Positions 469-21,852 are shown, numbered from the stretch's first letter. The stretch is 25,058 nucleotides of DNA from a virus (IMGVR_UViG_2529292919_000017), one strand, 5' to 3'. Numbers and translations are program-made. Notes: a model not told the origin generated them from the letters alone.

Positions 469-617
469 TTCCTGCGATACCACGGAAGGTTGATAGCTGA
501 TTTCATCGCTTTATTTGCTTCAAGCCACATTTTGGAATCACCAATAAATCTGGCTATTACTGCTTTGTTCTGTGCAGCACGAAGCATCTGGTGATTGATG
601 GCTATTTCATTGCGCAT
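465..617 (-). CDS. Kil-like small protein (50 aa)
   Basis: ATG 617-615 with GGAGG Shine-Dalgarno (revcomp of 620-628); translation MRNEIAINHQMLRAAQNKAVIARFIGDSKMWLEANKAMKSAINLPWYRRK. The FIGD-KM motif and the position downstream of cIII recall lambda Kil, from memory. Confidence 0.45.
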   Translation of the reverse strand: MRNEIAINHQMLRAAQNKAVIARFIGDSKMWLEANKAMKSAINLPWYRRK

Positions 618-736
618 AACGCCTCCAGTTGTTTCTTTGCTGCTCTGATTAATTGTTTAACTCGGCGTGATAATTCAGATTCGTGCGGGTAGAAAGCGGA
701 CATGACGCCGCTACCCGCGAGCTGAAAGTGCATCAT
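602..736 (-). CDS. cIII: cIII-like protease inhibitor (44 aa)
   Basis: ATGATG at 736-731 preceded by AAGGAG; translation MMHFQLAGSGVMSAFYPHESELSRRVKQLIRAAKKQLEALCAMK has the same pattern as the central region of lambda cIII. The ORF track extends it to 811, but the internal start has the strong Shine-Dalgarno. Confidence 0.6.
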   Translation of the reverse strand: MMHFQLAGSGVMSAFYPHESELSRRVKQLIRAAKKQLEALCAMK

Positions 737-811
737 GGGTAACTCCTTATATTTGATTGCATAACGAAAACGCCTCGAGTGAAGCGTTATTGGTATGCGG
801 TAAAGCCGCAC

Positions 812-1180
812 TCAGGCGGCCTTGATAGTCATATCATCTGAATCAAATATTCCTGATGTATCGATATCGGTAATTCTTATTCCTTCACTACCATCCATTG
901 GAGGCCATCCTTCCTGACCATTTCCATCATCCCAGTCGAACTCACAAACAACACCATATGCATTTAAGTCTTTCGAAATTGCTATAAGCAGAGCATGTTG
1001 CGCCAGCATGATTAATACAGCATTTAATACAGAGCCGTGTTTATTGAGTCGGTATTCAGAGTCTGACCAGAAATTATTAATCTGGTGAAGTTTTTCCTCT
1101 GTCATTACGTCATGGTCGATTTCAATTTCTATTGATGCTTTCCAGTCGTAATCAATGATGTATTTTTTGATGTTTGACAT
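812..1180 (-). CDS. hypothetical protein, strongly acidic (many D/E, especially the C-terminal third)
   Basis: 122-aa ORF in the track; ATG 1180-1178 with GAGGAT Shine-Dalgarno; lies in the pL operon between N and cIII. Confidence 0.6.
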   Translation of the reverse strand: MSNIKKYIIDYDWKASIEIEIDHDVMTEEKLHQINNFWSDSEYRLNKHGSVLNAVLIMLAQHALLIAISKDLNAYGVVCEFDWDDGNGQEGWPPMDGSEGIRITDIDTSGIFDSDDMTIKAA

Positions 1181-1200
1181 CTATTCATATCCTCATAGAT

Positions 1201-1226
1201 AAAAAATCGCCCTCACATTAGAGGGC
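1201..1226 (-). terminator. rho-independent terminator on the minus strand (tL-like)
   Basis: Stem GCCCTC (1209-1214) / GAGGGC (1221-1226) with 6-nt loop; the plus-strand A-run 1201-1206 is a U-run after the stem on the minus-strand transcript. Confidence 0.5.
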
Positions 1227-1288
1227 AAAGAAGATTTCCAATAATCAGAACAAGTCGGCTCCTGTTTAGTTACGAGCGACATTGCTCC

Positions 1289-1316
1289 GTGTATTCACTC
1301 GTTGGAATGAATACAC
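1289..1316 (-). other. 9-bp perfect stem-loop just downstream of the 156-aa gene
   Basis: GTGTATTCA (1289-1297) pairs with TGAATACAC (1308-1316); no U-run, so more likely an RNA processing or stability element than an intrinsic terminator. Confidence 0.3.
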
Positions 1317-1330
1317 AGTGCTTATTCGTA

Positions 1331-1801
1331 CTAATAAAACACCCAATTTTCTGTTTCTTGGTTGTGTCCAAAGTTATATTCAATATCTGGTGTTGATGTA
1401 TCAATATTCTTCATCCCATCAACAAGAGTTGATACAACAGCCAAATCTTGTTTGATTCTCATCAAATGGTATTTCTTTCGGCGCAATAAACTTTCAATGG
1501 CAAGTTTCTTCGTCGGGAATGCAAAAGATCTTTCTGCATTTTTTGCTACTTTCTTAATTGCATATCTATTTCTCCTTTGTTTCCATTCCTGTAACCACTG
1601 ATTTGGTGCTGGTTTAAAATTAACAATCCAATGCGCAGGAACCAACCATGCATAATGCTCTGTCTGATGAAAAGCTATATATTGAAGTGCGAATATTTTG
1701 ATCCCATCTTCTTCAACTGTCGCCTGGAATCTCCAGAAAACAGGCATTCCATCATGTTCAGTTTCTGATTCAGGAAAAGGTACGCTCCATGATTTTGTCA
1801 T
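1331..1801 (-). CDS. hypothetical protein (156 aa), first gene downstream of N in the pL operon
   Basis: ORF track; ATG 1801-1799 preceded by GAGGTGA (revcomp of 1802-1811); AT-rich coding sequence. Confidence 0.6.
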   Translation of the reverse strand: MTKSWSVPFPESETEHDGMPVFWRFQATVEEDGIKIFALQYIAFHQTEHYAWLVPAHWIVNFKPAPNQWLQEWKQRRNRYAIKKVAKNAERSFAFPTKKLAIESLLRRKKYHLMRIKQDLAVVSTLVDGMKNIDTSTPDIEYNFGHNQETENWVFY

Positions 1802-1859
1802 ATCTCACCTCAAATAAGTGGTTTGCTGCCTAATTTCATTTTCTGGCGACCAACACAAG

Positions 1860-2132
1860 TCATCTTGCTGTCAGTTGTTTGGATTTCCGGTAGCCTGCCG
1901 CGTAAAGAGCTACGTTCGGAAGACAAGTTGAGCCTTCATATTTTCTGGTCAACGTTGTCAGTGTTATTACTTCTGCTCTCATTGCTGGTTTGCGCTTGCA
2001 TTGCAAGACCACTCGAGAGGGGGTTGGTCTGTGTAGCTTGTCGGAGCTAATCGCCTCCTGACTTTGCAGGTTTGCGCGACGAGCTCTACGACGAGAAGCT
2101 GAGGTGCCTTTAAATTCTGTTTTTCTGGACAT
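1860..2132 (-). CDS. N: N-like transcription antiterminator (90 aa)
   Basis: Internal ATG 2132-2130 of the 118-aa track ORF, preceded by GGGAGGAA. N-terminal arginine-rich motif TSASRRRARRANL. C-terminus LPNVALYAAGYRKSKQLTAR resembles the P22 gene 24 C-terminus as I recall it. nutL lies in its leader. Confidence 0.7.
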   Translation of the reverse strand: MSRKTEFKGTSASRRRARRANLQSQEAISSDKLHRPTPSRVVLQCKRKPAMRAEVITLTTLTRKYEGSTCLPNVALYAAGYRKSKQLTAR

Positions 2133-2230
2133 AGATTCCTCCCGAATAAACTTTGGTGATGCAATCTCGAAGCTCCTCCTGAGACGGTTGCTTCGGCATT
2201 GCATCCCACAGCTCATGTGGTTGGGTGATC

Positions 2231-2276: not shown

Positions 2277-2321
2277 CTGCCAGTCTGTTCCGTTTGGCTT
2301 CCAGCGTCCTGCTGACGGTTA

Positions 2322-2420
2322 AATAGTACGATATGTACTTTATTGGGTTAATACTATTTGTTCTAAAATAGGGTGATTTTTTATAACACTTTGTATTTAA
2401 TAGTGTTGTTTTTTAGCGTG
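2322..2420 (-). promoter_or_regulatory. candidate OL operators and pL promoter
   Basis: Inverted repeat AGTAC-GATAT-GTACT at 2325-2339 resembles the OR-side TACATATTGTA; further AT-rich dyads CTATTT..AAATAG and AACACT..AGTGTT. A possible pL on the minus strand is -35 TTAACC / -10 TACTAT flanking the dyad. Exact sites not established. Confidence 0.3.
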
Positions 2421-2538
2421 GGTGTATCGCCTCGGCGATGTAAGGAGAGATCAGAATTGCGTGGTTTAGTGAGTTGTATCTATTTATTTTTCAATAAATA
2501 CATTTGGTTATGTGTCTTTAGGTGGGGGCGTGAGGCAA

Positions 2539-2562
2539 AGAAAACCCGGCGCTGAGGCCGGG
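2539..2562 (-). terminator. rho-independent terminator ending the cI / DinD-like transcript
   Basis: Stem CCCGGC (2545-2550) / GCCGGG (2557-2562), loop GCTGAG, followed on the minus strand by a U-rich run (plus A-run 2539-2544); 9 bp past the stop of the 280-aa gene. Confidence 0.5.
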
Positions 2563-2570
2563 GTATGCAT

Positions 2571-3413
2571 TTATGGTTTTTTTTGGTCGTGCTTTGCTAG
2601 GGCTTTATGAGTTTTCTTAATGCTGCTTCTAACTTTCTGAATTTTTTCTTGGGAAAGTTTTATGTTTTCAGGGGCTGTTCCAGTGTTAGAAATCATTACA
2701 TTGCGAACAGATCTCCCTACGGTCTCAGCAGCATTCTCTAGTTGAGACTGTCCCTTCAGGTTCTGGTTTCTGATTCTTGCTTCTGTCTGTGTAATTCTGA
2801 ATATATTGGCCGCGAGCTCTTCGCTTCCCATGAAGTCAAGCATCGTTCCATCTTTTTTAGTTAGGCCTTTTCGAGCTTTCAACTGTGAGAGATTCATATT
2901 GTACATCCCACGGTAGCCCGCATTTTGAAATAGACCATAGTCGACTACTCCGTGTTTATGGGCTACATGACTGAGAGTTTTCTCTCTAGATGTAATCTCG
3001 CCACGCAAATAAACTCGATTAACTGCGTCATGGTTATGATATGTAGTGTGTATTTCTGCTGCGAGCCCAGCAAAATAAGCTTGTGCATTTGCAACTTTTT
3101 GATTGCTGATGTCACCATTCATTACAATCAGATAACAAGCGAAACGAGTTAATTTAAAGTCATTTTTCGCATTTTCTGAAGGCATCTGGATGAAGTTATC
3201 GTATACAGGGATATCGAGGCTCACACATACAGATGTAGCTTTGTTAATGGCTTTCAATATCTGATCCATGCCATTATATCCAAGCATCATCGCTAAATCA
3301 GATGCAAACCAATAGGTAACACCGTTTTCTCTAGCGAAATCATCAAATGTTAACTGTGATGTGTCATCGAAAACAGTAATTTGCCTACTCATATCACACC
3401 CGAACTTACTCAT
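2571..3413 (-). CDS. DinD-like protein (DNA-damage-inducible protein D family) in the rexAB position
   Basis: 280-aa ORF; ATG 3413-3411 with AAGGGA Shine-Dalgarno. Motifs RFACYLIVMNGD and FMGSEELAANIFRITQTEARIR match my recollection of E. coli DinD (RYACYLVVQNGD, HMGSTELAANLFRATQTEEKLR). Family call needs a search. Confidence 0.5.
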   Translation of the reverse strand: MSKFGCDMSRQITVFDDTSQLTFDDFARENGVTYWFASDLAMMLGYNGMDQILKAINKATSVCVSLDIPVYDNFIQMPSENAKNDFKLTRFACYLIVMNGDISNQKVANAQAYFAGLAAEIHTTYHNHDAVNRVYLRGEITSREKTLSHVAHKHGVVDYGLFQNAGYRGMYNMNLSQLKARKGLTKKDGTMLDFMGSEELAANIFRITQTEARIRNQNLKGQSQLENAAETVGRSVRNVMISNTGTAPENIKLSQEKIQKVRSSIKKTHKALAKHDQKKP

Positions 3414-3493
3414 CGATTTTCCCTTATATTAATATAATGTGGATAGTTTGTCGCCAACTCGCTAAAGTTATTCATTATGAGGTTTGCCATCCA

Positions 3494-4153
3494 TCACCCA
3501 AACGTCTCTTCAGGCCACTGACTAGCGATAACTTTCCCCACAACGGAACAACTCTCATTGCATGGGATCATTGGGTATTGTGGATTTAGTGGCTGTAGAA
3601 ACACCTGACCGCTATCCCTGATCAGTTTCTTGAAGGTAAATTCATCACCACCAAGTCTGGCTATGCAGAAATCGCCGGGCTCAACAGCTTGCTCTGGGTC
3701 AACCAGAATTAACATCCCGTCAGGAAAACTAGGTTTGGAACCTGTTGGGGCGGTCATTGAGTTACCTTCAACCTCAAGCCAGAATGCAGAGTCACTGGCT
3801 TTTTTGGTTGTGCTTACCAATCTCTCCGCATCGCCTTTGGTAAAGGTTCTGAGTTCTGGAGAGAACATCCCAGCCTGAACATGAGAAAAAACAGGGTACT
3901 CATATTGTTTTTTAACTGGGGCCGATGAGTATTCGCCAACAGGTGAAAATGTCCCGTCGTGGTTGAATGATATGTTATCAATACCAAGGTATTTAAACAC
4001 CACACCAATATCACTAAGAGATGGATGACGAGATCCGCGCAACCAGTGTCCAATCCCACCCTGCGTCATACCTAGCTCTTCGGCTAACTTCTCTTGAGTT
4101 ATGCCGAGCTCTTTCATTCTGGATCTAGCCAGTTCATACCATTTCATTTTCAT
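3494..4153 (-). CDS. cI: cI repressor: lambda-type C-terminal LexA-like (S24) domain with a non-lambda N-terminal HTH domain
   Basis: From [25 protein letters not shown] to the end (…[17 protein letters not shown]) the protein matches lambda cI as I recall it, apart from one residue; the N-terminus [37 protein letters not shown] is different. Start taken at ATG 4153 or 4147; the longer track ORF (to 4315) would overlap cro and is unlikely. Confidence 0.9.
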
Positions 4154-4263
4154 GTCCTTATTATTACGCTCTGTATTGCAACCATCCATGCACAATGTGT
4201 ATTTTTGCTTGCATTCAAAAAGTACATATTGTATTTTTTCTTCATGGTTACTATGGAGGGCAT
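4154..4263. promoter_or_regulatory. OR region with divergent pRM/pR and candidate operators
   Basis: Intergenic between divergent cI and cro. Dyads CACAATGTG (4191-4199) and TACATATTGTA (4223-4233). pR candidate: -35 TTGCAT (4209-4214), 17-bp spacer, -10 TATTTT (4232-4237), with the second dyad in the spacer and -10. Confidence 0.55.
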
Positions 4264-4479
4264 ATGAGCAACCTACGAAAATATCGAGAGTCACTGAATA
4301 TCTCTCAAACAACACTTGCTAAGGCAGTTGGATGCACACAGGGAGCTATCGGACATTGGGAATCTGGTCGTCGCTTCCCAGACCTTAAAACATGCCGTGC
4401 TCTTGTTGCGTGTCTAAACAAGTTAGGCGCAAAAGTAAGTCTTGATGACGTGTTCCCGCCGGAGCACAAAGCCGCTTAA
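4264..4479 (+). CDS. cro: Cro-like HTH repressor (71 aa)
   Basis: ATG 4264 preceded by GGAGGG; translation [71 protein letters not shown] is an XRE-type HTH. The track ORF from 4195 overlaps the cI start. Confidence 0.75.
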
Positions 4480-4489
4480 TAAGCGGAGC

Positions 4490-4534
4490 CGCTCTTTGTA
4501 ACAACGGACATTCGTCCTACGTCGCTGAAAAGCG
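4490..4534 (+). promoter_or_regulatory. nutR (boxA CGCTCTTTG, boxB hairpin CGCTGAAAAGCG)
   Basis: boxA at 4490-4498 is close to lambda boxA CGCTCTTA; boxB stem-loop at 4523-4534. A perfect inverted repeat CCGCTTA/TAAGCGG (4472-4487) straddles the cro stop codon. Confidence 0.55.
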
Positions 4535-4620
4535 AGCCCCAAGATATCTGACCAACTAAGGCCATATGCGTTTCCACGCATACCTTTCAACTAACTATTC
4601 ACTATTGGAAATCTTAAGAA

Positions 4621-4917
4621 ATGGAACAAACAAGTTACAGCAAACTATCACAGCGTGACGTTGATCGCGCAGAAACAGATTTACTCATCAACCTGTCAAC
4701 GCTTACCCAGCGTGGTCTGGCAAAGATGATTGGCTGTCATGAATCGAAGATAAGCAGAACGGACTGGCGGTTTATTGCTTCGGTCTTGTGTGCTTTCGGA
4801 ATGGCATCAGACATCAGTCCAATTAGCAGGGCTTTTAAGTATGCGCTTGATGGAATCACAAAGAAAAAACGCCCGGCGGCAACCGAGCGTTCTGAACAAA
4901 TCCAGATGGAGTTCTGA
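4621..4917 (+). CDS. cII: cII transcriptional activator
   Basis: 98-aa ORF; C-terminus KKRPAATERSEQIQMEF is identical to lambda cII as I recall it; central HTH region LAKMIGCHESKISR. Confidence 0.9.
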   Translation: MEQTSYSKLSQRDVDRAETDLLINLSTLTQRGLAKMIGCHESKISRTDWRFIASVLCAFGMASDISPISRAFKYALDGITKKKRPAATERSEQIQMEF

Positions 4918-5297
4918 GGTCATTACTGGATCTATCAACAGGAGTCATTATGACAAATACAGCAAAAATACTCAACTTCGGCAGAGGTAACTTTGCCGGA
5001 CAGGAGCGTAATGTGGCAGATCTCGATGATGGTTACGCCAGACTATCAAATATGCTGCTTGAGGCTTATTCAGGCGCAGATCTGACCAAGCGACAGTTTA
5101 AAGTGCTGCTTGCCATTCTGCGTAAAACCTATGGGTGGAATAAACCAATGGACAGAATCACCGATTCTCAACTTAGCGAGATTACAAAGTTACCCGTCAA
5201 ACGGTGCAATGAAGCCAAGTTAGAACTCGTCAGAATGAATATTATCAAGCAGCAAGGCGGCATGTTTGGACCAAATAAAAACATCTCAGAATGGTGT

Positions 5298-5378
5298 ATC
5301 CCTCAAAACGAGGGAAAATCCCCTAAAACGAGGGATAAAACATCCCTCAAATTGGGGGATTGCTATCCCTCAAAACAG
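5298..5378. repeat. ori-lambda iterons (O-binding sites), the fourth cut by the IS
   Basis: ATCCCTCAAAACGAGGGA (5298-5315), ATCCCCTAAAACGAGGGA (5318-5335), ATCCCTCAAATTGGGGGA (5342-5359), ATCCCTCAAAACAG (5365-5378) continuing as GGGGA after the IS; AT-rich ori segment follows at 6940-6985. Confidence 0.75.
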
Positions 5379-6928
5379 CTGTCTCTTGATCAGATCTCCT
5401 GATCAAGAGACTTCATCACCAGGTAACCCTCAACCATATCCTGAAGTCTGAACCAGCCATCCCACATGACTACCCAACCGGGGCGACCGGTGCGTTTGCT
5501 GTCATGCCATCGCCCCAGTTTCGCCAGTTTCAGACAGGCCCATTTCAGTGTCGGCATCTGTGACGGAAGCGGTTTTCCTTCCAGCTTAACCCACAGCAGT
5601 TTCCACTCTGTCGGCGTCAGTACTTTCTCACAGCTGTCATTTTGTGTTTCTTCACTGATACCGCCCTGCCGCAGGCCCAGCACCCGCACCGCGATAAACG
5701 CCTTGATAACCACCATGCGCTCGAGGTTATCCCGGGTCTGCATTCGCAGCGATTCCACACATGTACCACCACTTTTCCACGCCTTGTGGTATTCCTCTAT
5801 CAGCCAGCGTCGCTCGTAATGGCTGACGATACGTCGCGCATCGGCGGCACTCGCCACTTTTTCTGACGTCAGCAGATGCCAGCAGGCGCCGTCCTCTGCC
5901 TGCTCCCGGCAACAGACATACGTGAGCGGGAGCGCCTGGCCGCTGTTGTCGGGATTTTTTATGCTGACTTCGCTGTAACTGATGAACATCCGGGCCTGGC
6001 GGGCTGCCCGCCCGCCTTTTTGCATCACATTCAGCGTGTGGCTTCCCGCAGTTGCCAGGACTTCCGGCAGTTCGAAGAGCTTGCCGGGTGCTTCTTCCAG
6101 CCGGCGATTCTGTGCTGCACGCACCACGAAGCGCTGCCCGTGGCTGACTTTATAATGCAGGTAATGCCAGATATCCGCTTCCCGGTCACAGACAGTGATT
6201 ACCCGTTTCTGTATCTCCCCCAGCCGTTCGGCCATGCGCTCCGAAGCCTGCTGCCAGCGGTAACTTTCTTTTTCTTCATAGGGACGTTCTTTTCGCTGGT
6301 GCTTAACACCGTAGGTGTCCGTGGCACGACTCCAGCGCTGCTGTTCGATAAGACCGACTGGCAGGGCGCTGTCGGGGGCGTACATCAGGACAGAGTGAGC
6401 CAGCAGCCCGCGCGTCTTCGGGTTAGTGGTGGTATTCCCCAGGTCATCAGATGCCGTACTGTGACTGAAGTTAATGGTGGTGGTGTCTTCCAGCGCGAGG
6501 AGCAGCGGATGAGCCTCACATGCCCTTACAGTGGCGGTAAATCCGGCTTCGGCAATGGCTTGCGGGGACACAGACGGGTTACGTATCAGGCGGTACGCAC
6601 CTTCAACCTGAGCAGTGGACTGGGATGATTTCACAATAGAAAGACCTGCATGCTGAGCGAGAGAAGAGGCCAGTGACACAAGGCGTCGTGTACGACGCGG
6701 ATCACCGAGACGGGCATGTCCAAACTGCTCGTTAGCCCATGAATAACAATCAGAAAGTACCATAACAGACCCGAAGAAAATGAAATATAAGAGAAGATCA
6801 ACGGGTGAGGAAAAAGTTCAAAAAATCGCTGCCGGGGAGGAAGGAAACTACCGGATGGAAAGAGTCCCCCTAAAGCAGACTGACAGACATCACAAATCCC
6901 CGGGTGGGGATTTGTGTATAAGAGACAG
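5379..6928 (-). mobile_element. IS50-like insertion sequence (IS4 family)
   Basis: Left end CTGTCTCTTGATCAGATCT (5379-5397) is identical to the Tn5/IS50 inside end; right end reads CTGTCTCTTATACACAAAT in revcomp (to 6928), close to the IS50 outside end. Flanked by direct repeat CAAAACAG (5371-5378 and 6929-6936). Confidence 0.85.
5390..6763 (-). CDS. IS50-like DDE transposase
   Basis: 457-aa ORF; N-terminus ...LGDPRRTRRLVSLASSLAQHAGLSIVKSS...EGAYRLIRNPSVSPQAIAEAGF parallels Tn5 transposase (LGDPRRTARLVNVAAQLAKY...EGAYRFIRNPNVSAEAIRKAG) from memory; C-terminus reaches the inside end as in IS50. Confidence 0.85.
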   Translation of the reverse strand: MVLSDCYSWANEQFGHARLGDPRRTRRLVSLASSLAQHAGLSIVKSSQSTAQVEGAYRLIRNPSVSPQAIAEAGFTATVRACEAHPLLLALEDTTTINFSHSTASDDLGNTTTNPKTRGLLAHSVLMYAPDSALPVGLIEQQRWSRATDTYGVKHQRKERPYEEKESYRWQQASERMAERLGEIQKRVITVCDREADIWHYLHYKVSHGQRFVVRAAQNRRLEEAPGKLFELPEVLATAGSHTLNVMQKGGRAARQARMFISYSEVSIKNPDNSGQALPLTYVCCREQAEDGACWHLLTSEKVASAADARRIVSHYERRWLIEEYHKAWKSGGTCVESLRMQTRDNLERMVVIKAFIAVRVLGLRQGGISEETQNDSCEKVLTPTEWKLLWVKLEGKPLPSQMPTLKWACLKLAKLGRWHDSKRTGRPGWVVMWDGWFRLQDMVEGYLVMKSLDQEI

Positions 6929-7403
6929 CAAAACAGGGGGACACAAAAGACACTATTACAAAAGAAAAAAGAAAAGATTATTCGTCCGAGAATTCTGGCG
7001 AATCCTCTGACCAGCCAGAAAACGATCTTTCTGTGGTTAAACCGGATGCTGCAATTCAGAGCTGCAGCAAGTGGGGAACAGCAGAAGACCTGACCGCCGC
7101 AGAGTGGATGTTTGACATGGTGAAGACCATCGCGCCATCAGCCAGAAAACCGAATTTTGCTGGGTGGGCTAACGATATCCGCCTGATGCGTGAACGTGAC
7201 GGACGTAACCACCGCGATATGTGTGTGCTTTTCCGCTGGGCCTGCCAGGACAACTTCTGGTCCGGTAACGTGCTGAGTCCGGCCAAACTCCGCGACAAGT
7301 GGACCCAGCTCGAAATCAACCGTAACAAGCAACAGGCAGGCGTGACAGCCAGCAAACCAAAACTCGACCTGACAAACACTGACTGGATTTACGGGGTGGA
7401 TTT

Positions 7404-17131: not shown

Positions 17132-19200
17132 TGCTGAATCAGGAAACCGCAAAGGCAGCACGAACCGATTCAGGTTATATCCTTCGCGCACCGAGACGAA
17201 TGCGGGTTGCTGATGCCGTTGCTCAGTATATGCGGGTGCCCATGGGGGCCGGGAACTCAGTCCCGTGGGATCCGCTGGTGGCACCGTATGTTATTGAGCC
17301 GATGAACTGCCTGGCCTCGCGTGAATACGACGCAGTGATATTTGTTGGCCCGGCACGAACTGGCAAGACTATCGGCCTGATTGACGGCTGGGTGATTTAC
17401 AACGTGATTTGCGATCCTGCGGATATGCTGATCATTCAGATGACGGAGGAAAAAGCCCGCGAACACTCCAAAAAACGACTTGCCAGAACGTTTCGCGTCA
17501 GCCCGGAAGTGGTCAGTCGCCTGAGTCCGAACAAAAATGACAACAACGTTTATGACAGAACATTCCTTGCTGGCAACTACCTGAAAATCGGCTGGCCGTC
17601 AGTCAATATCATGTCCTCATCAGATTATAAATGCGTGGCGCTGACGGATTATGACCGTTTTCCGGAAGATATTGATGGCGAGGGGGATGCCTTCTCTCTT
17701 GCCTCAAAACGTACCACCACATTTATGTCCAGTGGTATGACGCTGGTGGAGAGTTCCCCCGGCAGGGATGTGAAGGATGTGAAATGGCGACGGACTTCAC
17801 CGCATGAGGCTCCACCAACCACGGGGATACTGTCGCTCTATAACCGTGGCGATCGCCGTCGCTGGTACTGGCCCTGTCCACACTGTGGTGAGTATTTTCA
17901 GCCCTGCGGCGATGTGGTTGCTGGTTTCCGTGATATTGCCGATCCCGTGCTGGCAAGTGAGGCGGCTTATATTCAGTGTCCTTCCTGTTCAGGACGGATT
18001 ATGCCTGAACAAAAACGTGAGCTGAACGGACGTGGGGTCTGGTTGCGGGATGGTGAATCCATCAATGCGGATGGCAGTCGTTATGGTGATCCCCGACGCT
18101 CACGTATTGCGTCATTCTGGATGGAGGGTCCGGCAGCTGCTTACCAGACACTCTCGCAACTCGTTTACAAACTGCTTACTGCAGAACAGGAATACGAGAC
18201 AACCGGAAGTGAAGAAACACTCAAGACGGTTATCAATACCGACTGGGGATTACCTTATCTTCCCCGTGCCAGCATGGAGCAACGAAAAAGTGAACTGCTT
18301 GAGCAGCGGGCAGAGCCAGTTCCTTCCCGCAGTGTGCCGGATGGCGTTAATTTCCTGGTGGCGACAGTTGATGTGCAGGCGGGACGTCATCGCCGTTTTG
18401 TGGTTCAGGTAACGGGCTATGGCAGCCGTGGCGAACGCTGGATTATTGATCGTTACAACATCACGCAGTCATTGCGCGGTGACAGCGACGGGGAGAGCCA
18501 GCGAATTGATCCGGCCAGCTATCCGGAAGACTGGGATGTCCTGCTGACGGATGTTTTTCATAAAAGCTGGCCGCTGGCCTCCGATCCTTCTCAACAAATG
18601 CGACTGATGGCAATGGCGGTGGACTCCGGCGGTGAAGACGGGGTCACTGATAATGCCTATAAATTCTGGCGTCGTTGCCGTCGTGATGGCCTTGGTAAAC
18701 GTATTTACCTGTTTAAGGGCGACAGCATCCGGCGCGCAAAACTGATCACCCGTACATTCCCTGATAACACCGGACGAACGGGCCGACGGGCGCAGGCCGC
18801 AGGTGATGTGCCGCTCTGGCTTCTTCAGACGGATGCCCTGAAAGACCGGATGAATAACGCGTTATGGCGTGACTCGCCAGGTCCCGGCTATGTGCATTTC
18901 CCTGACTGGCTGGGGAGCTGGTTTTACGACGAACTGACGTATGAAGAGCGGAGTAGTGACGGGAAATGGAGTAAGCCGGGTCGCGGTGCCAACGAAGCTT
19001 TTGACCTGATGGTGTATGCCGAGGCTCTGGTCATTCTGCATGGATACGAAAAGATCCGCTGGCCGGATGCACCGGAGTGGGCGAGCCGGGAAACCTGGCT
19101 GGAGTGTGTCCCGGACAGTACCGAACCGTCATCCTCACCGGAACCGGTATCCACGCCTGTTAAAAAACAAAAACGGAAGAAAAGTAACCGGCTCATTTAA
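17131..19200 (+). CDS. terminase large subunit (GpA family); the last five codons and stop come from the IS66-family terminal repeat
   Basis: 689-aa ORF; Walker-A-like FVGPARTGKT; overall GpA-like. Codons 19184-19200 (S-N-R-L-I-stop) lie inside the IS inverted repeat GTAACCGGCTCATTTAA, so the native C-terminus is replaced. Confidence 0.85.
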   Translation: MLNQETAKAARTDSGYILRAPRRMRVADAVAQYMRVPMGAGNSVPWDPLVAPYVIEPMNCLASREYDAVIFVGPARTGKTIGLIDGWVIYNVICDPADMLIIQMTEEKAREHSKKRLARTFRVSPEVVSRLSPNKNDNNVYDRTFLAGNYLKIGWPSVNIMSSSDYKCVALTDYDRFPEDIDGEGDAFSLASKRTTTFMSSGMTLVESSPGRDVKDVKWRRTSPHEAPPTTGILSLYNRGDRRRWYWPCPHCGEYFQPCGDVVAGFRDIADPVLASEAAYIQCPSCSGRIMPEQKRELNGRGVWLRDGESINADGSRYGDPRRSRIASFWMEGPAAAYQTLSQLVYKLLTAEQEYETTGSEETLKTVINTDWGLPYLPRASMEQRKSELLEQRAEPVPSRSVPDGVNFLVATVDVQAGRHRRFVVQVTGYGSRGERWIIDRYNITQSLRGDSDGESQRIDPASYPEDWDVLLTDVFHKSWPLASDPSQQMRLMAMAVDSGGEDGVTDNAYKFWRRCRRDGLGKRIYLFKGDSIRRAKLITRTFPDNTGRTGRRAQAAGDVPLWLLQTDALKDRMNNALWRDSPGPGYVHFPDWLGSWFYDELTYEERSSDGKWSKPGRGANEAFDLMVYAEALVILHGYEKIRWPDAPEWASRETWLECVPDSTEPSSSPEPVSTPVKKQKRKKSNRLI

Positions 19201-20280: not shown

Positions 20281-21852
20281 ATGGACACCTCACTTGCTCA
20301 TGAGAACGCCCGCCTGCGGGCACTGTTGCAGACGCAACAGGACACCATCCGCCAGATGGCTGAATACAACCGCCTGCTCTCACAGCGGGTGGCGGCTTAT
20401 GCTTCCGAAATCAACCGGCTGAAGGCGCTGGTTGCGAAACTGCAACGTATGCAGTTCGGTAAAAGCTCAGAAAAACTTCGTGCAAAAACCGAACGGCAGA
20501 TACAGGAAGCACAGGAGCGAATCAGCGCACTTCAGGAAGAAATGGCGGAAACGCTGGGTGAGCAATATGACCCGGTACTGCCATCCGCCCTGCGCCAGTC
20601 TTCAGCCCGTAAACCGTTACCGGCCTCACTTCCCCGTGAAACCCGGGTTATCCGGCCGGAAGAGGAATGCTGTCCTGCCTGTGGTGGTGAACTCAGTTCT
20701 CTGGGATGTGATGTGTCAGAGCAACTGGAGCTTATCAGCAGCGCCTTTAAGGTTATCGAAACACAACGTCCGAAACAGGCCTGTTGCCGGTGCGACCATA
20801 TCGTGCAGGCACCAGTACCTTCAAAACCCATTGCACGCAGTTATGCCGGAGCGGGGCTTCTGGCCCATGTTGTCACCGGGAAATATGCAGACCATCTGCC
20901 GTTATACCGCCAGTCAGAAATATACCGTCGTCAGGGAGTGGAGCTGAGCCGTGCCACACTGGGGCGCTGGACAGGTGCTGTTGCTGAACTGCTGGAGCCG
21001 CTGTATGACGTCCTGCGCCAGTATGTGCTGATGCCCGGTAAAGTCCATGCTGATGATATCCCCGTCCCGGTCCAGGAGCCGGGCAGCGGTAAAACCCGGA
21101 CAGCCCGGCTGTGGGTCTACGTCCGTGATGACCGTAACGCCGGTTCACAGATGCCCCCGGCGGTCTGGTTCGCGTACAGTCCGGACCGGAAAGGTATCCA
21201 TCCACAAAATCACCTGGCCGGTTACAGCGGTGTGCTTCAGGCCGATGCTTACGGTGGTTACCGGGCGTTATACGAATCCGGCAGAATAACGGAAGCCGCG
21301 TGTATGGCTCATGCCCGGAGAAAAATCCACGATGTGCATGCAAGAGCGCCCACCTACATCACCACGGAAGCCCTGCAGCGTATCGGTGAACTGTATGCCA
21401 TCGAGGCAGAGGTCCGGGGCTGTTCAGCAGAACAGCGTCTGGCGGCAAGAAAAGCCAGAGCCGCGCCACTGATGCAGTCACTGTATGACTGGATACAGCA
21501 ACAGATGAAAACACTGTCGCGTCACTCAGATACGGCAAAAGCGTTCGCATACCTGCTGAAACAGTGGGATGCACTGAACGTGTACTGCAGTAATGGCTGG
21601 GTGGAAATCGACAACAACATCGCAGAGAACGCCTTACGGGGAGTGGCCGTAGGCCGGAAAAACTGGATGTTCGCGGGTTCCGACAGCGGTGGTGAACATG
21701 CGGCGGTGTTGTACTCGCTGATCGGCACATGCCGTCTGAACAATGTGGAGCCAGAAAAGTGGCTGCGTTACGTCATTGAACATATCCAGGACTGGCCGGC
21801 AAACCGGGTACGCGATCTGTTGCCCTGGAAAGTTGATCTGAGCTCTCAGTAA
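20281..21852 (+). CDS. IS66-family transposase (TnpC-type)
   Basis: 523-aa ORF with an N-terminal coiled-coil/leucine-zipper region, a CxxC...CxC zinc motif (CPACGG...CRCDH) and a long DDE-type catalytic region, as in IS66 transposases. Confidence 0.9.

Follow-up and report, generated by a model that had tools for sequence, protein, structure and literature searches.

In lambda lysogens, rexA and rexB lie downstream of the repressor gene cI and provide an abortive-infection and exclusion system expressed in the lysogen. In the lambdoid prophage sequence IMGVR_UViG_2529292919_000017 (25,058 nucleotides; the whole of this stretch is referred to as the window) the same place is taken by a single gene for a 280-amino-acid (aa) protein similar to Escherichia coli DinD, which raises the question of what such a gene does behind a phage repressor. 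An original prediction, made from the sequence, had suggested that it either damps RecA-mediated cleavage of cI or acts in defence like rex. According to the present analysis, the gene appears to be a one-gene accessory cassette ('moron') placed exactly between the cI stop codon and the terminator of the immunity operon, where it replaces rexAB, and the chance that this cassette serves in defence or exclusion is judged to be about even. Its open reading frame (ORF) occupies 2571-3413 on the minus strand, with a TAA stop at 2571-2573, and is co-oriented with the cI-type repressor gene, whose end at 3494 is separated from it by a gap of exactly 80 bp (3414-3493). These coordinates agree throughout with those originally given. 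The window as a whole is a lambdoid prophage immunity region having 99.9% DNA identity to a prophage of enteropathogenic E. coli (EPEC) E2348/69, in which RefSeq names the DinD-like gene 'BRO family protein'.

Alignments with lambda and other phages confirm that the gene occupies the rexAB slot. The flanks (approximately 2445-2570 and 3490-3904) are 92.5% identical to the lambda-lysogen sequence that brackets rexA and rexB, with the same orientation and the same terminator, and the DNA encoding the C-terminal part of cI shows about 92-95% identity to lambda cI. In the pairwise alignment, lambda homology ends at the cI stop codon and restarts 1-3 nt short of the terminator stem. Seven lambdoid phages were aligned, namely this one, 2B8 (with an NYN gene), ev017 (DUF1828 plus a partner), AVS0655 (two unknown genes), Stx2-1717, 2G7b, and lambda; the two junctions are as sharp in each of them as in the others, and the cargo between the junctions is unrelated. 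Thus, the exchangeable cassette is delimited to 2563-3490 (minus strand), from the cI stop codon to the terminator stem, and the terminator is assigned to the backbone. The GC content of the cassette is 39%, as compared with 46-48% in the flanks. Among 5426 complete E. coli genomes the cassette is found in 10, all copies being 100% identical and all in the same context. E. coli AVS0655 has cI and Cro protein accessions identical to those of E2348/69 and carries two unrelated genes as its cassette, which is direct evidence of cassette exchange.

The cargo found between the same flanks in E. coli genomes and phages is diverse. It includes rexAB, HicAB, DUF2335, several proteins without any match, a KilA-N protein whose C-terminus matches BstA (2.5e-20; carried by E. 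coli G1/2), an NYN-domain protein with a weak match to the defence protein HEC-09, and a DUF1828 gene with its partner, which match PDC-M24B and PDC-M24A. The region between cI and N has been described as a mosaic hotspot where RexAB and BstA are found and share the very active promoter of the repressor gene (Owen et al. 2021, PMC8585504). Three further cargoes have no PADLOC match: the 206-aa and 144-aa pair of AVS0655 (locus record 571-1622, minus strand), which lies behind the identical cI, the 173-aa protein of Stx2 phage 1717 (locus record 863-1384, minus strand), and the 283-aa protein of phage 2G7b (locus record 1096-1947, minus strand). By analogy of position, these may be regarded as uncharacterised defence candidates.

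The coupling to a repressor gene recurs in other genomes. At least twelve different repressors, from several genera, are followed by a close homologue, and close relatives (65-92% identity) repeatedly come directly after a prophage repressor gene in the same orientation. The adjoining cI is 49% identical to the one studied here for the Providencia homologue and only 23% identical for the homologue of Pasteurella phage Pmp14, the homologue of a Microbulbifer prophage adjoins a repressor with a helix-turn-helix (HTH) domain only, and the Yersinia homologues belong to three different immunity regions. An 85%-identical relative follows another S24 repressor, and one 92%-identical protein sequence is found behind three different repressor/cro pairs. 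As a separate observation, one metagenomic prophage lineage has a block made up, in this order, of an S24 repressor, HipA_2, DUF3037, and the DinD-like gene (locus records 5456-6984, plus strand); the block is kept with three different alleles of the repressor, and HipA_2 and DUF3037 seem to make up a two-gene module of their own.

Homologues also adjoin genes of other kinds. In streptococcal satellites resembling phage-inducible islands (Javan729, locus record 3323-4804, and 14 similar records) a DinD-like gene with 36-37% identity adjoins int, beside RelE/StbE toxin genes, and this position next to int is a typical site of accessory or defence cargo. The streptococcal dinD-like gene has been described as an 'indel' gene with no function demonstrated. 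A homologue in a P2-like prophage adjoins the integrase, and others reside in ordinary chromosomal neighbourhoods. The survey of the two upstream neighbours at 77 diverse loci (125 proteins) yields 5 HTH_3, 3 S24, 3 IS1595, and 2 Type ISP/IIG restriction-modification (RM) matches. No partner family recurs upstream across these 77 loci, the RM and defence matches being scattered, and the gene is therefore considered a self-contained mobile single-gene module. A two-gene system with a conserved partner was also considered and is rejected in view of the heterogeneous upstream neighbours at these loci. The case for an enrichment of the family in defence islands is weak.

As for the end of the transcript, terminator scan, RNA folding, and alignment with lambda all point to 2535-2562 on the minus strand. 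The stem (2562-2545) has 6 G-C pairs and a 6-nt loop and is followed by TTTTCTTT, the T-tract extending to 2535; the folding energy is -12.7 kcal/mol (z = -2.1). Both the hairpin and the T-tract are identical to the lambda terminator after rexB and are kept in the 7 lambdoid phages with different cargo. This is the backbone terminator of the immunity operon, and it forms the promoter-distal boundary of the cassette slot. The original prediction had regarded it as the gene's own terminator before OL/pL; it is indeed a real intrinsic terminator, but one common to all cassettes.

The 80-bp spacer between cI and the gene contains a ribosome-binding site (RBS), AAGGGA, at 3425-3420. According to a consensus scan, it contains neither a sigma-70 promoter nor a terminator. 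The best promoter candidate chosen by eye, TTGGCG-15 nt-TATATT, has poor spacing, and upstream conservation among the Providencia, Yersinia, and Pasteurella homologues is limited to about 30 nt before the ATG, that is, to the RBS region. These results speak against the promoter that had been proposed for the gap. Because no terminator or recognisable promoter is found between the two genes, the DinD-like gene is most likely transcribed with cI by read-through from the repressor promoters, as rexA is in lambda. No LexA box (CTG-N10-CAG) is detected anywhere in 2300-4600, including the spacer, where one had been thought worth looking for. In contrast, a perfect LexA box, CTGTATATAAATACAG, precedes K-12 dinD at a distance of 46 bp (locus record 2700-2715). 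SOS control of the DinD-like gene is thus rejected. Independently of this, the loose CTG-N10-CAG pattern occurs 12 times in the whole window, with 5.7 copies expected and none of 100 shuffles reaching 12; a stretch of 110 bp (21420-21529) holds three of the copies, one of them being the palindromic CTGTTCAGCAGAACAG.

The resemblance to DinD, already pointed out in the original prediction, is confirmed by BLASTP (33% identity to K-12 DinD, b3645, over 258 aa, E=9e-44) and by the NCBIfam model NF008573 (DinD), which is matched at profile positions 12-286 of 288 with 198.6 bits (E=1.4e-58). The curated equivalog cut-off of this model is 242 bits, and an assignment as DinD equivalog is ruled out by the lower score, the LexA box being absent as well. 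Judging by these scores, the protein is a full-length DinD-family paralogue rather than an equivalog. The PADLOC model PDC-S13 (PDLC04919) matches residues 17-279 at its positions 7-280 of 281 (E=2.1e-86), and the PHROG family phrog_8036, of unknown function, is matched at 3e-147. The Bro-N domain, which had also been named as a point to check, is recognised by Pfam PF02498 at residues 29-110 (33.6 bits, gathering cut-off 25.6). It is the sole Pfam match at E<=0.1, no KilAC/ANT antirepressor domain being found. The family comprises 2393 clusters at E<=1e-5, and its members are spread across many phyla at 41-69% identity. Its alignment has 41 invariant columns, and the C-domain motifs FQNAGYRGMYN and LDxMGxEELAANxFRxTQTE are invariant, K-12 DinD having both.

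Another PADLOC model, PDLC03083 (Specificity_I, 717 positions), is also matched by the protein, at positions 14-276 (8.5e-40). Since these positions belong to the N-terminal part of the model, the match implies that a DinD-like module is probably fused to HsdS in some natural proteins, which would be a further physical link between the family and restriction. According to a published report, one Type I RM operon contains a coding sequence with a dinD domain (PMC9881135).

The AlphaFold2 model, built from 46 homologues, has a pLDDT of 89.5 and a pTM of 0.80. It consists of an alpha/beta N-domain that includes Bro-N, a low-confidence linker (approximately residues 121-130), and a helical C-domain. 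In the window, Bro-N (residues 29-110, inside the acidic N-domain of residues 1-122) corresponds to 3084-3329 on the minus strand, and the basic all-helical C-terminal domain (residues 128-276), delimited by predicted secondary structure and containing the invariant motifs, to 2586-3032 on the same strand. The two halves differ in charge, with isoelectric points (pI) of 4.55 for residues 1-122 and 10.1 for residues 123-280. The predicted fold matches only DdrC of Deinococcus radiodurans (PDB 7qvb, 7udi, and 8u0g), with which it shares the two-domain fold at 14-20% identity in the structural alignment. Here a predicted monomer is compared with a domain-swapped dimer from a crystal, and the global root mean square deviation is high. 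Fold matches in BFVD are KilA-N and Bro-N proteins. DdrC itself is reported to have an N-terminal winged-helix/Dachshund-like domain with an unusually negative charge, to form an asymmetric dimer with the ability to compact DNA and to bind its nicks and double-strand breaks, and to be without known homologues outside Deinococcus. The family hidden Markov model (HMM) gives no match at E<=10 against all PDB sequences, the single-sequence PDB search gives nothing useful, and no published link between DdrC and DinD was found in the literature search. As there is neither a signal at the sequence level nor a published connection, the likeness of the model to DdrC is kept as a structural lead.

Taken with the position of the gene, these features suggest the following scheme. 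By analogy with lambda, the lysogen transcript from pRM/pRE would cover cI and the DinD-like gene and end at the shared terminator. The product, with its acidic Bro-N winged-helix-like domain and basic helical bundle in the layout of DdrC, may act as a stand-alone DNA-binding factor. It could recognise and block a DNA structure or a RecA-DNA joint molecule arising from the replication or recombination of a superinfecting phage, and the lysogen would be protected, as it is by RexAB or BstA from the same slot. Any particular target is far more doubtful than the defensive role itself. The earlier suggestion of a defence 'like rex' fits the comparative evidence, because the slot holds RexAB, a BstA-like gene, HicAB, and PADLOC candidates, and because the protein matches PDC-S13.

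Several points weigh against this scheme. Campylobacter phages with large genomes (174 kb) carry full-length homologues, as does Riemerella phage RAP44 in its early region, and the 4 kb on either side of these genes contain no annotated repressor. This suggests that the protein acts in phage DNA metabolism and not solely in defence of the lysogen. The genes next to homologues in distant phyla mostly have housekeeping functions, and defence matches are scattered. No family member has been reported to restrict a phage, PDC-S13 being a candidate, and the literature search returned no mention of PDC-S13 and no experiment on the family or on DinD in phage defence. Furthermore, the analysis establishes the anatomy of the region, the homology of the protein, the exchange of cargo in the slot, and the recurrence beside many repressors, but co-transcription with cI, DNA binding, and the effect on phages with its target are steps that we infer, the first by analogy and the second from the likeness of a predicted model to a crystal structure, with no signal at the sequence level.

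The strongest rival explanation, which we nevertheless consider unlikely, is a modulator of RecA or recombination for the benefit of the prophage, dismantling RecA from duplex or three-stranded DNA as E. coli DinD does. Lysogeny might be stabilised through damped cI cleavage, recombination with related lambdoid prophages or incoming relatives might be suppressed, or DNA damage might be tolerated in the manner of DdrC. E. coli DinD is an SOS-induced inhibitor of postsynaptic RecA filaments, and to our knowledge a single RecA study on it is the only biochemistry available for the family. The full-length homology to DinD, with the invariant C-domain motifs kept, and the predicted DdrC-like fold are consistent with such a modulator, and 41 invariant positions at about 50% identity across phyla would fit a universal partner, be it RecA or a DNA structure. 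DinD is also cited as dismantling RecA filaments. However, the score is under the DinD equivalog cut-off, there is no SOS box, and transformation was not greatly affected when a dinD-like gene was deleted from a pneumococcal island. The activity of DinD, going by the title of a 2011 study, is on postsynaptic filaments, and RecA-ssDNA filaments, which drive the autocleavage of cI and LexA, are reportedly unaffected. For this reason, and also because homologues adjoin repressors without S24 and occur on satellites and outside prophages, and because phages with the same cI do without the gene, the damping of RecA-mediated cI cleavage put forward in the original prediction is disfavoured.

A phage regulator is less probable still, that is, a Bro-N DNA-binding transcription factor or antirepressor-type protein of the lysis-lysogeny circuit. 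The gene does lie within the immunity region and does encode a Bro-N domain, and Bro-N/KilA-N proteins are often annotated as regulators or antirepressors, but no KilAC/ANT domain accompanies it at E<=0.1 and the N-domain is acidic (pI 4.55). Moreover, among phages that have cI and cro in common the slot is both dispensable and exchangeable, the gene hence not being part of the core circuitry, the same protein is found behind unrelated repressors, and an antirepressor co-transcribed with its own repressor would presumably be self-defeating. A further Bro-N/KilA-class protein, for which the annotation is KilAC-domain antirepressor, is encoded in the nin region of the E2348/69 prophage (18266-18988 in the locus record of that prophage); the DinD-like gene is therefore not the antirepressor of the phage. 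Finally, a decaying remnant without function, which recombination in a mosaic hotspot has carried along as a passenger, would agree with the rarity of the cassette (10 of 5426 E. coli genomes) and with the damage to this prophage, but is highly improbable given an intact ORF that is 100% identical in all ten genomes, a good RBS that is kept, a confident AlphaFold2 model, and a family strongly conserved across many phyla at 41-69% identity with 41 invariant columns.

The rest of the immunity region has the lambdoid order. The cI-type repressor (3494-4153, minus strand; the RefSeq start is the upstream ATG at 4189) has HTH_3 and Peptidase_S24 domains, and the N gene (1860-2216, minus strand) is identified by an N_peptide match of 7.6e-32. 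An inverted-repeat search finds an OL operator-like palindrome between the terminator and N (2321-2341), paired with an OR operator-like copy at 4219-4239 (inverted repeat I2, 86% complementary to 2321-2341). On the plus strand cro (4258-4479) and cII (4621-4917) follow, and then the replication gene O (Phage_rep_O, 1.4e-36), which in the region 4950-6800 is interrupted after about 140 codons by an IS4-like element of the ISEc13 family. The junction is near 5371, the end of the insertion sequence (IS), CTGTCTCTTGATCAGATCT, is at 5379-5397, and the transposase ORF (5390-6763, minus strand) has Tnp_DNA_bind, DDE_Tnp_1, and Tn5 dimerisation domains. This O::IS junction is found in none of the 5426 complete E. 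coli genomes; in E2348/69, O is intact, and 28-31 copies of the IS are located elsewhere in the genome. Because O is interrupted, the prophage is probably replication-defective, the immunity operon still being intact.

The hotspot between cI and N, the idea of defence cargo linked to the repressor, and the candidate status of PDC-S13 are already known, and PADLOC flags the gene automatically. The new results are the boundaries of the cassette at base level, the shared terminator, the recurrent coupling to many repressors, the absence of SOS control, and the fold match to DdrC. A slot known for defences expressed in the lysogen, such as RexAB and BstA, thereby gains a very widespread and strongly conserved DinD-like family. 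If the cassette restricts phages, DinD, an SOS gene without a clear physiological role, would acquire a testable function, a PADLOC candidate would be validated, and the match to DdrC would suggest a mechanism via recognition of broken or recombining DNA. If it has no effect on phages, the modulation of RecA is the next reading in line. On a broader and more speculative view, to which we give little weight, DinD-like proteins might form one widespread, horizontally mobile superfamily that senses DNA lesions or joint molecules, including SOS-induced E. coli DinD, with DdrC as a very divergent branch. Their primary role would then be immunity against phage DNA, deployed by prophages from the repressor operon, and the activities on RecA filaments and DNA breaks would be the effector mechanism.

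In comparison with known systems, the protein shares with E. coli DinD (PcsA; NF008573) the two-domain architecture over the full length and the motifs FQN.GY.G.Y and LD.MG..ELAAN.FR.TQTE. DinD, however, is encoded at the chromosomal yicC-yicG locus and has a LexA box, whereas the gene described here is prophage-borne, lies in the cI operon, and has none. PDC-S13, which the protein matches over its full length, is listed among 145 candidate families, and the PDC families were defined by genes that lie inside BREX, DISARM, or Type I RM loci (Payne et al. 2024 preprint, 10.1101/2024.01.29.577857); the present gene, in contrast, belongs to a prophage immunity operon. With lambda RexAB it has in common the identical slot, homologous flanks, orientation, and terminator, and presumably the same pRM/pRE transcript. 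RexAB, however, consists of a sensor and a membrane protein, whereas a single soluble protein of predicted DNA-binding type is encoded here. Homology to RexA or RexB is ruled out, as no Rex model is among the PADLOC matches of the 280-aa protein and these models match only in lambda, whose own proteins give 9e-110 and 8.6e-61. Homology to BstA is ruled out as well, there being no match to its HMM at E<=0.1 and a BLASTP E-value of 0.16 against the BstA-like protein of the slot; the C-domain is not that of BstA. As for an aba-like element, a repeat search, which is not conclusive, detects no repeat or dyad at the start of the gene; about 30 nt upstream and the first codons are conserved in close homologues. 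In general organisation, BstA, a prophage abortive-infection protein encoded downstream of cI (Owen et al. 2021, PMC8585504), shows a clear likeness to the gene. Both are single genes for proteins of about 280-310 aa directly after the repressor, with an N-terminal domain of the KilA-N/Bro-N type and a second, C-terminal domain, both families occur outside prophages too, and in E. coli G1/2 a BstA-like gene fills the very same slot.
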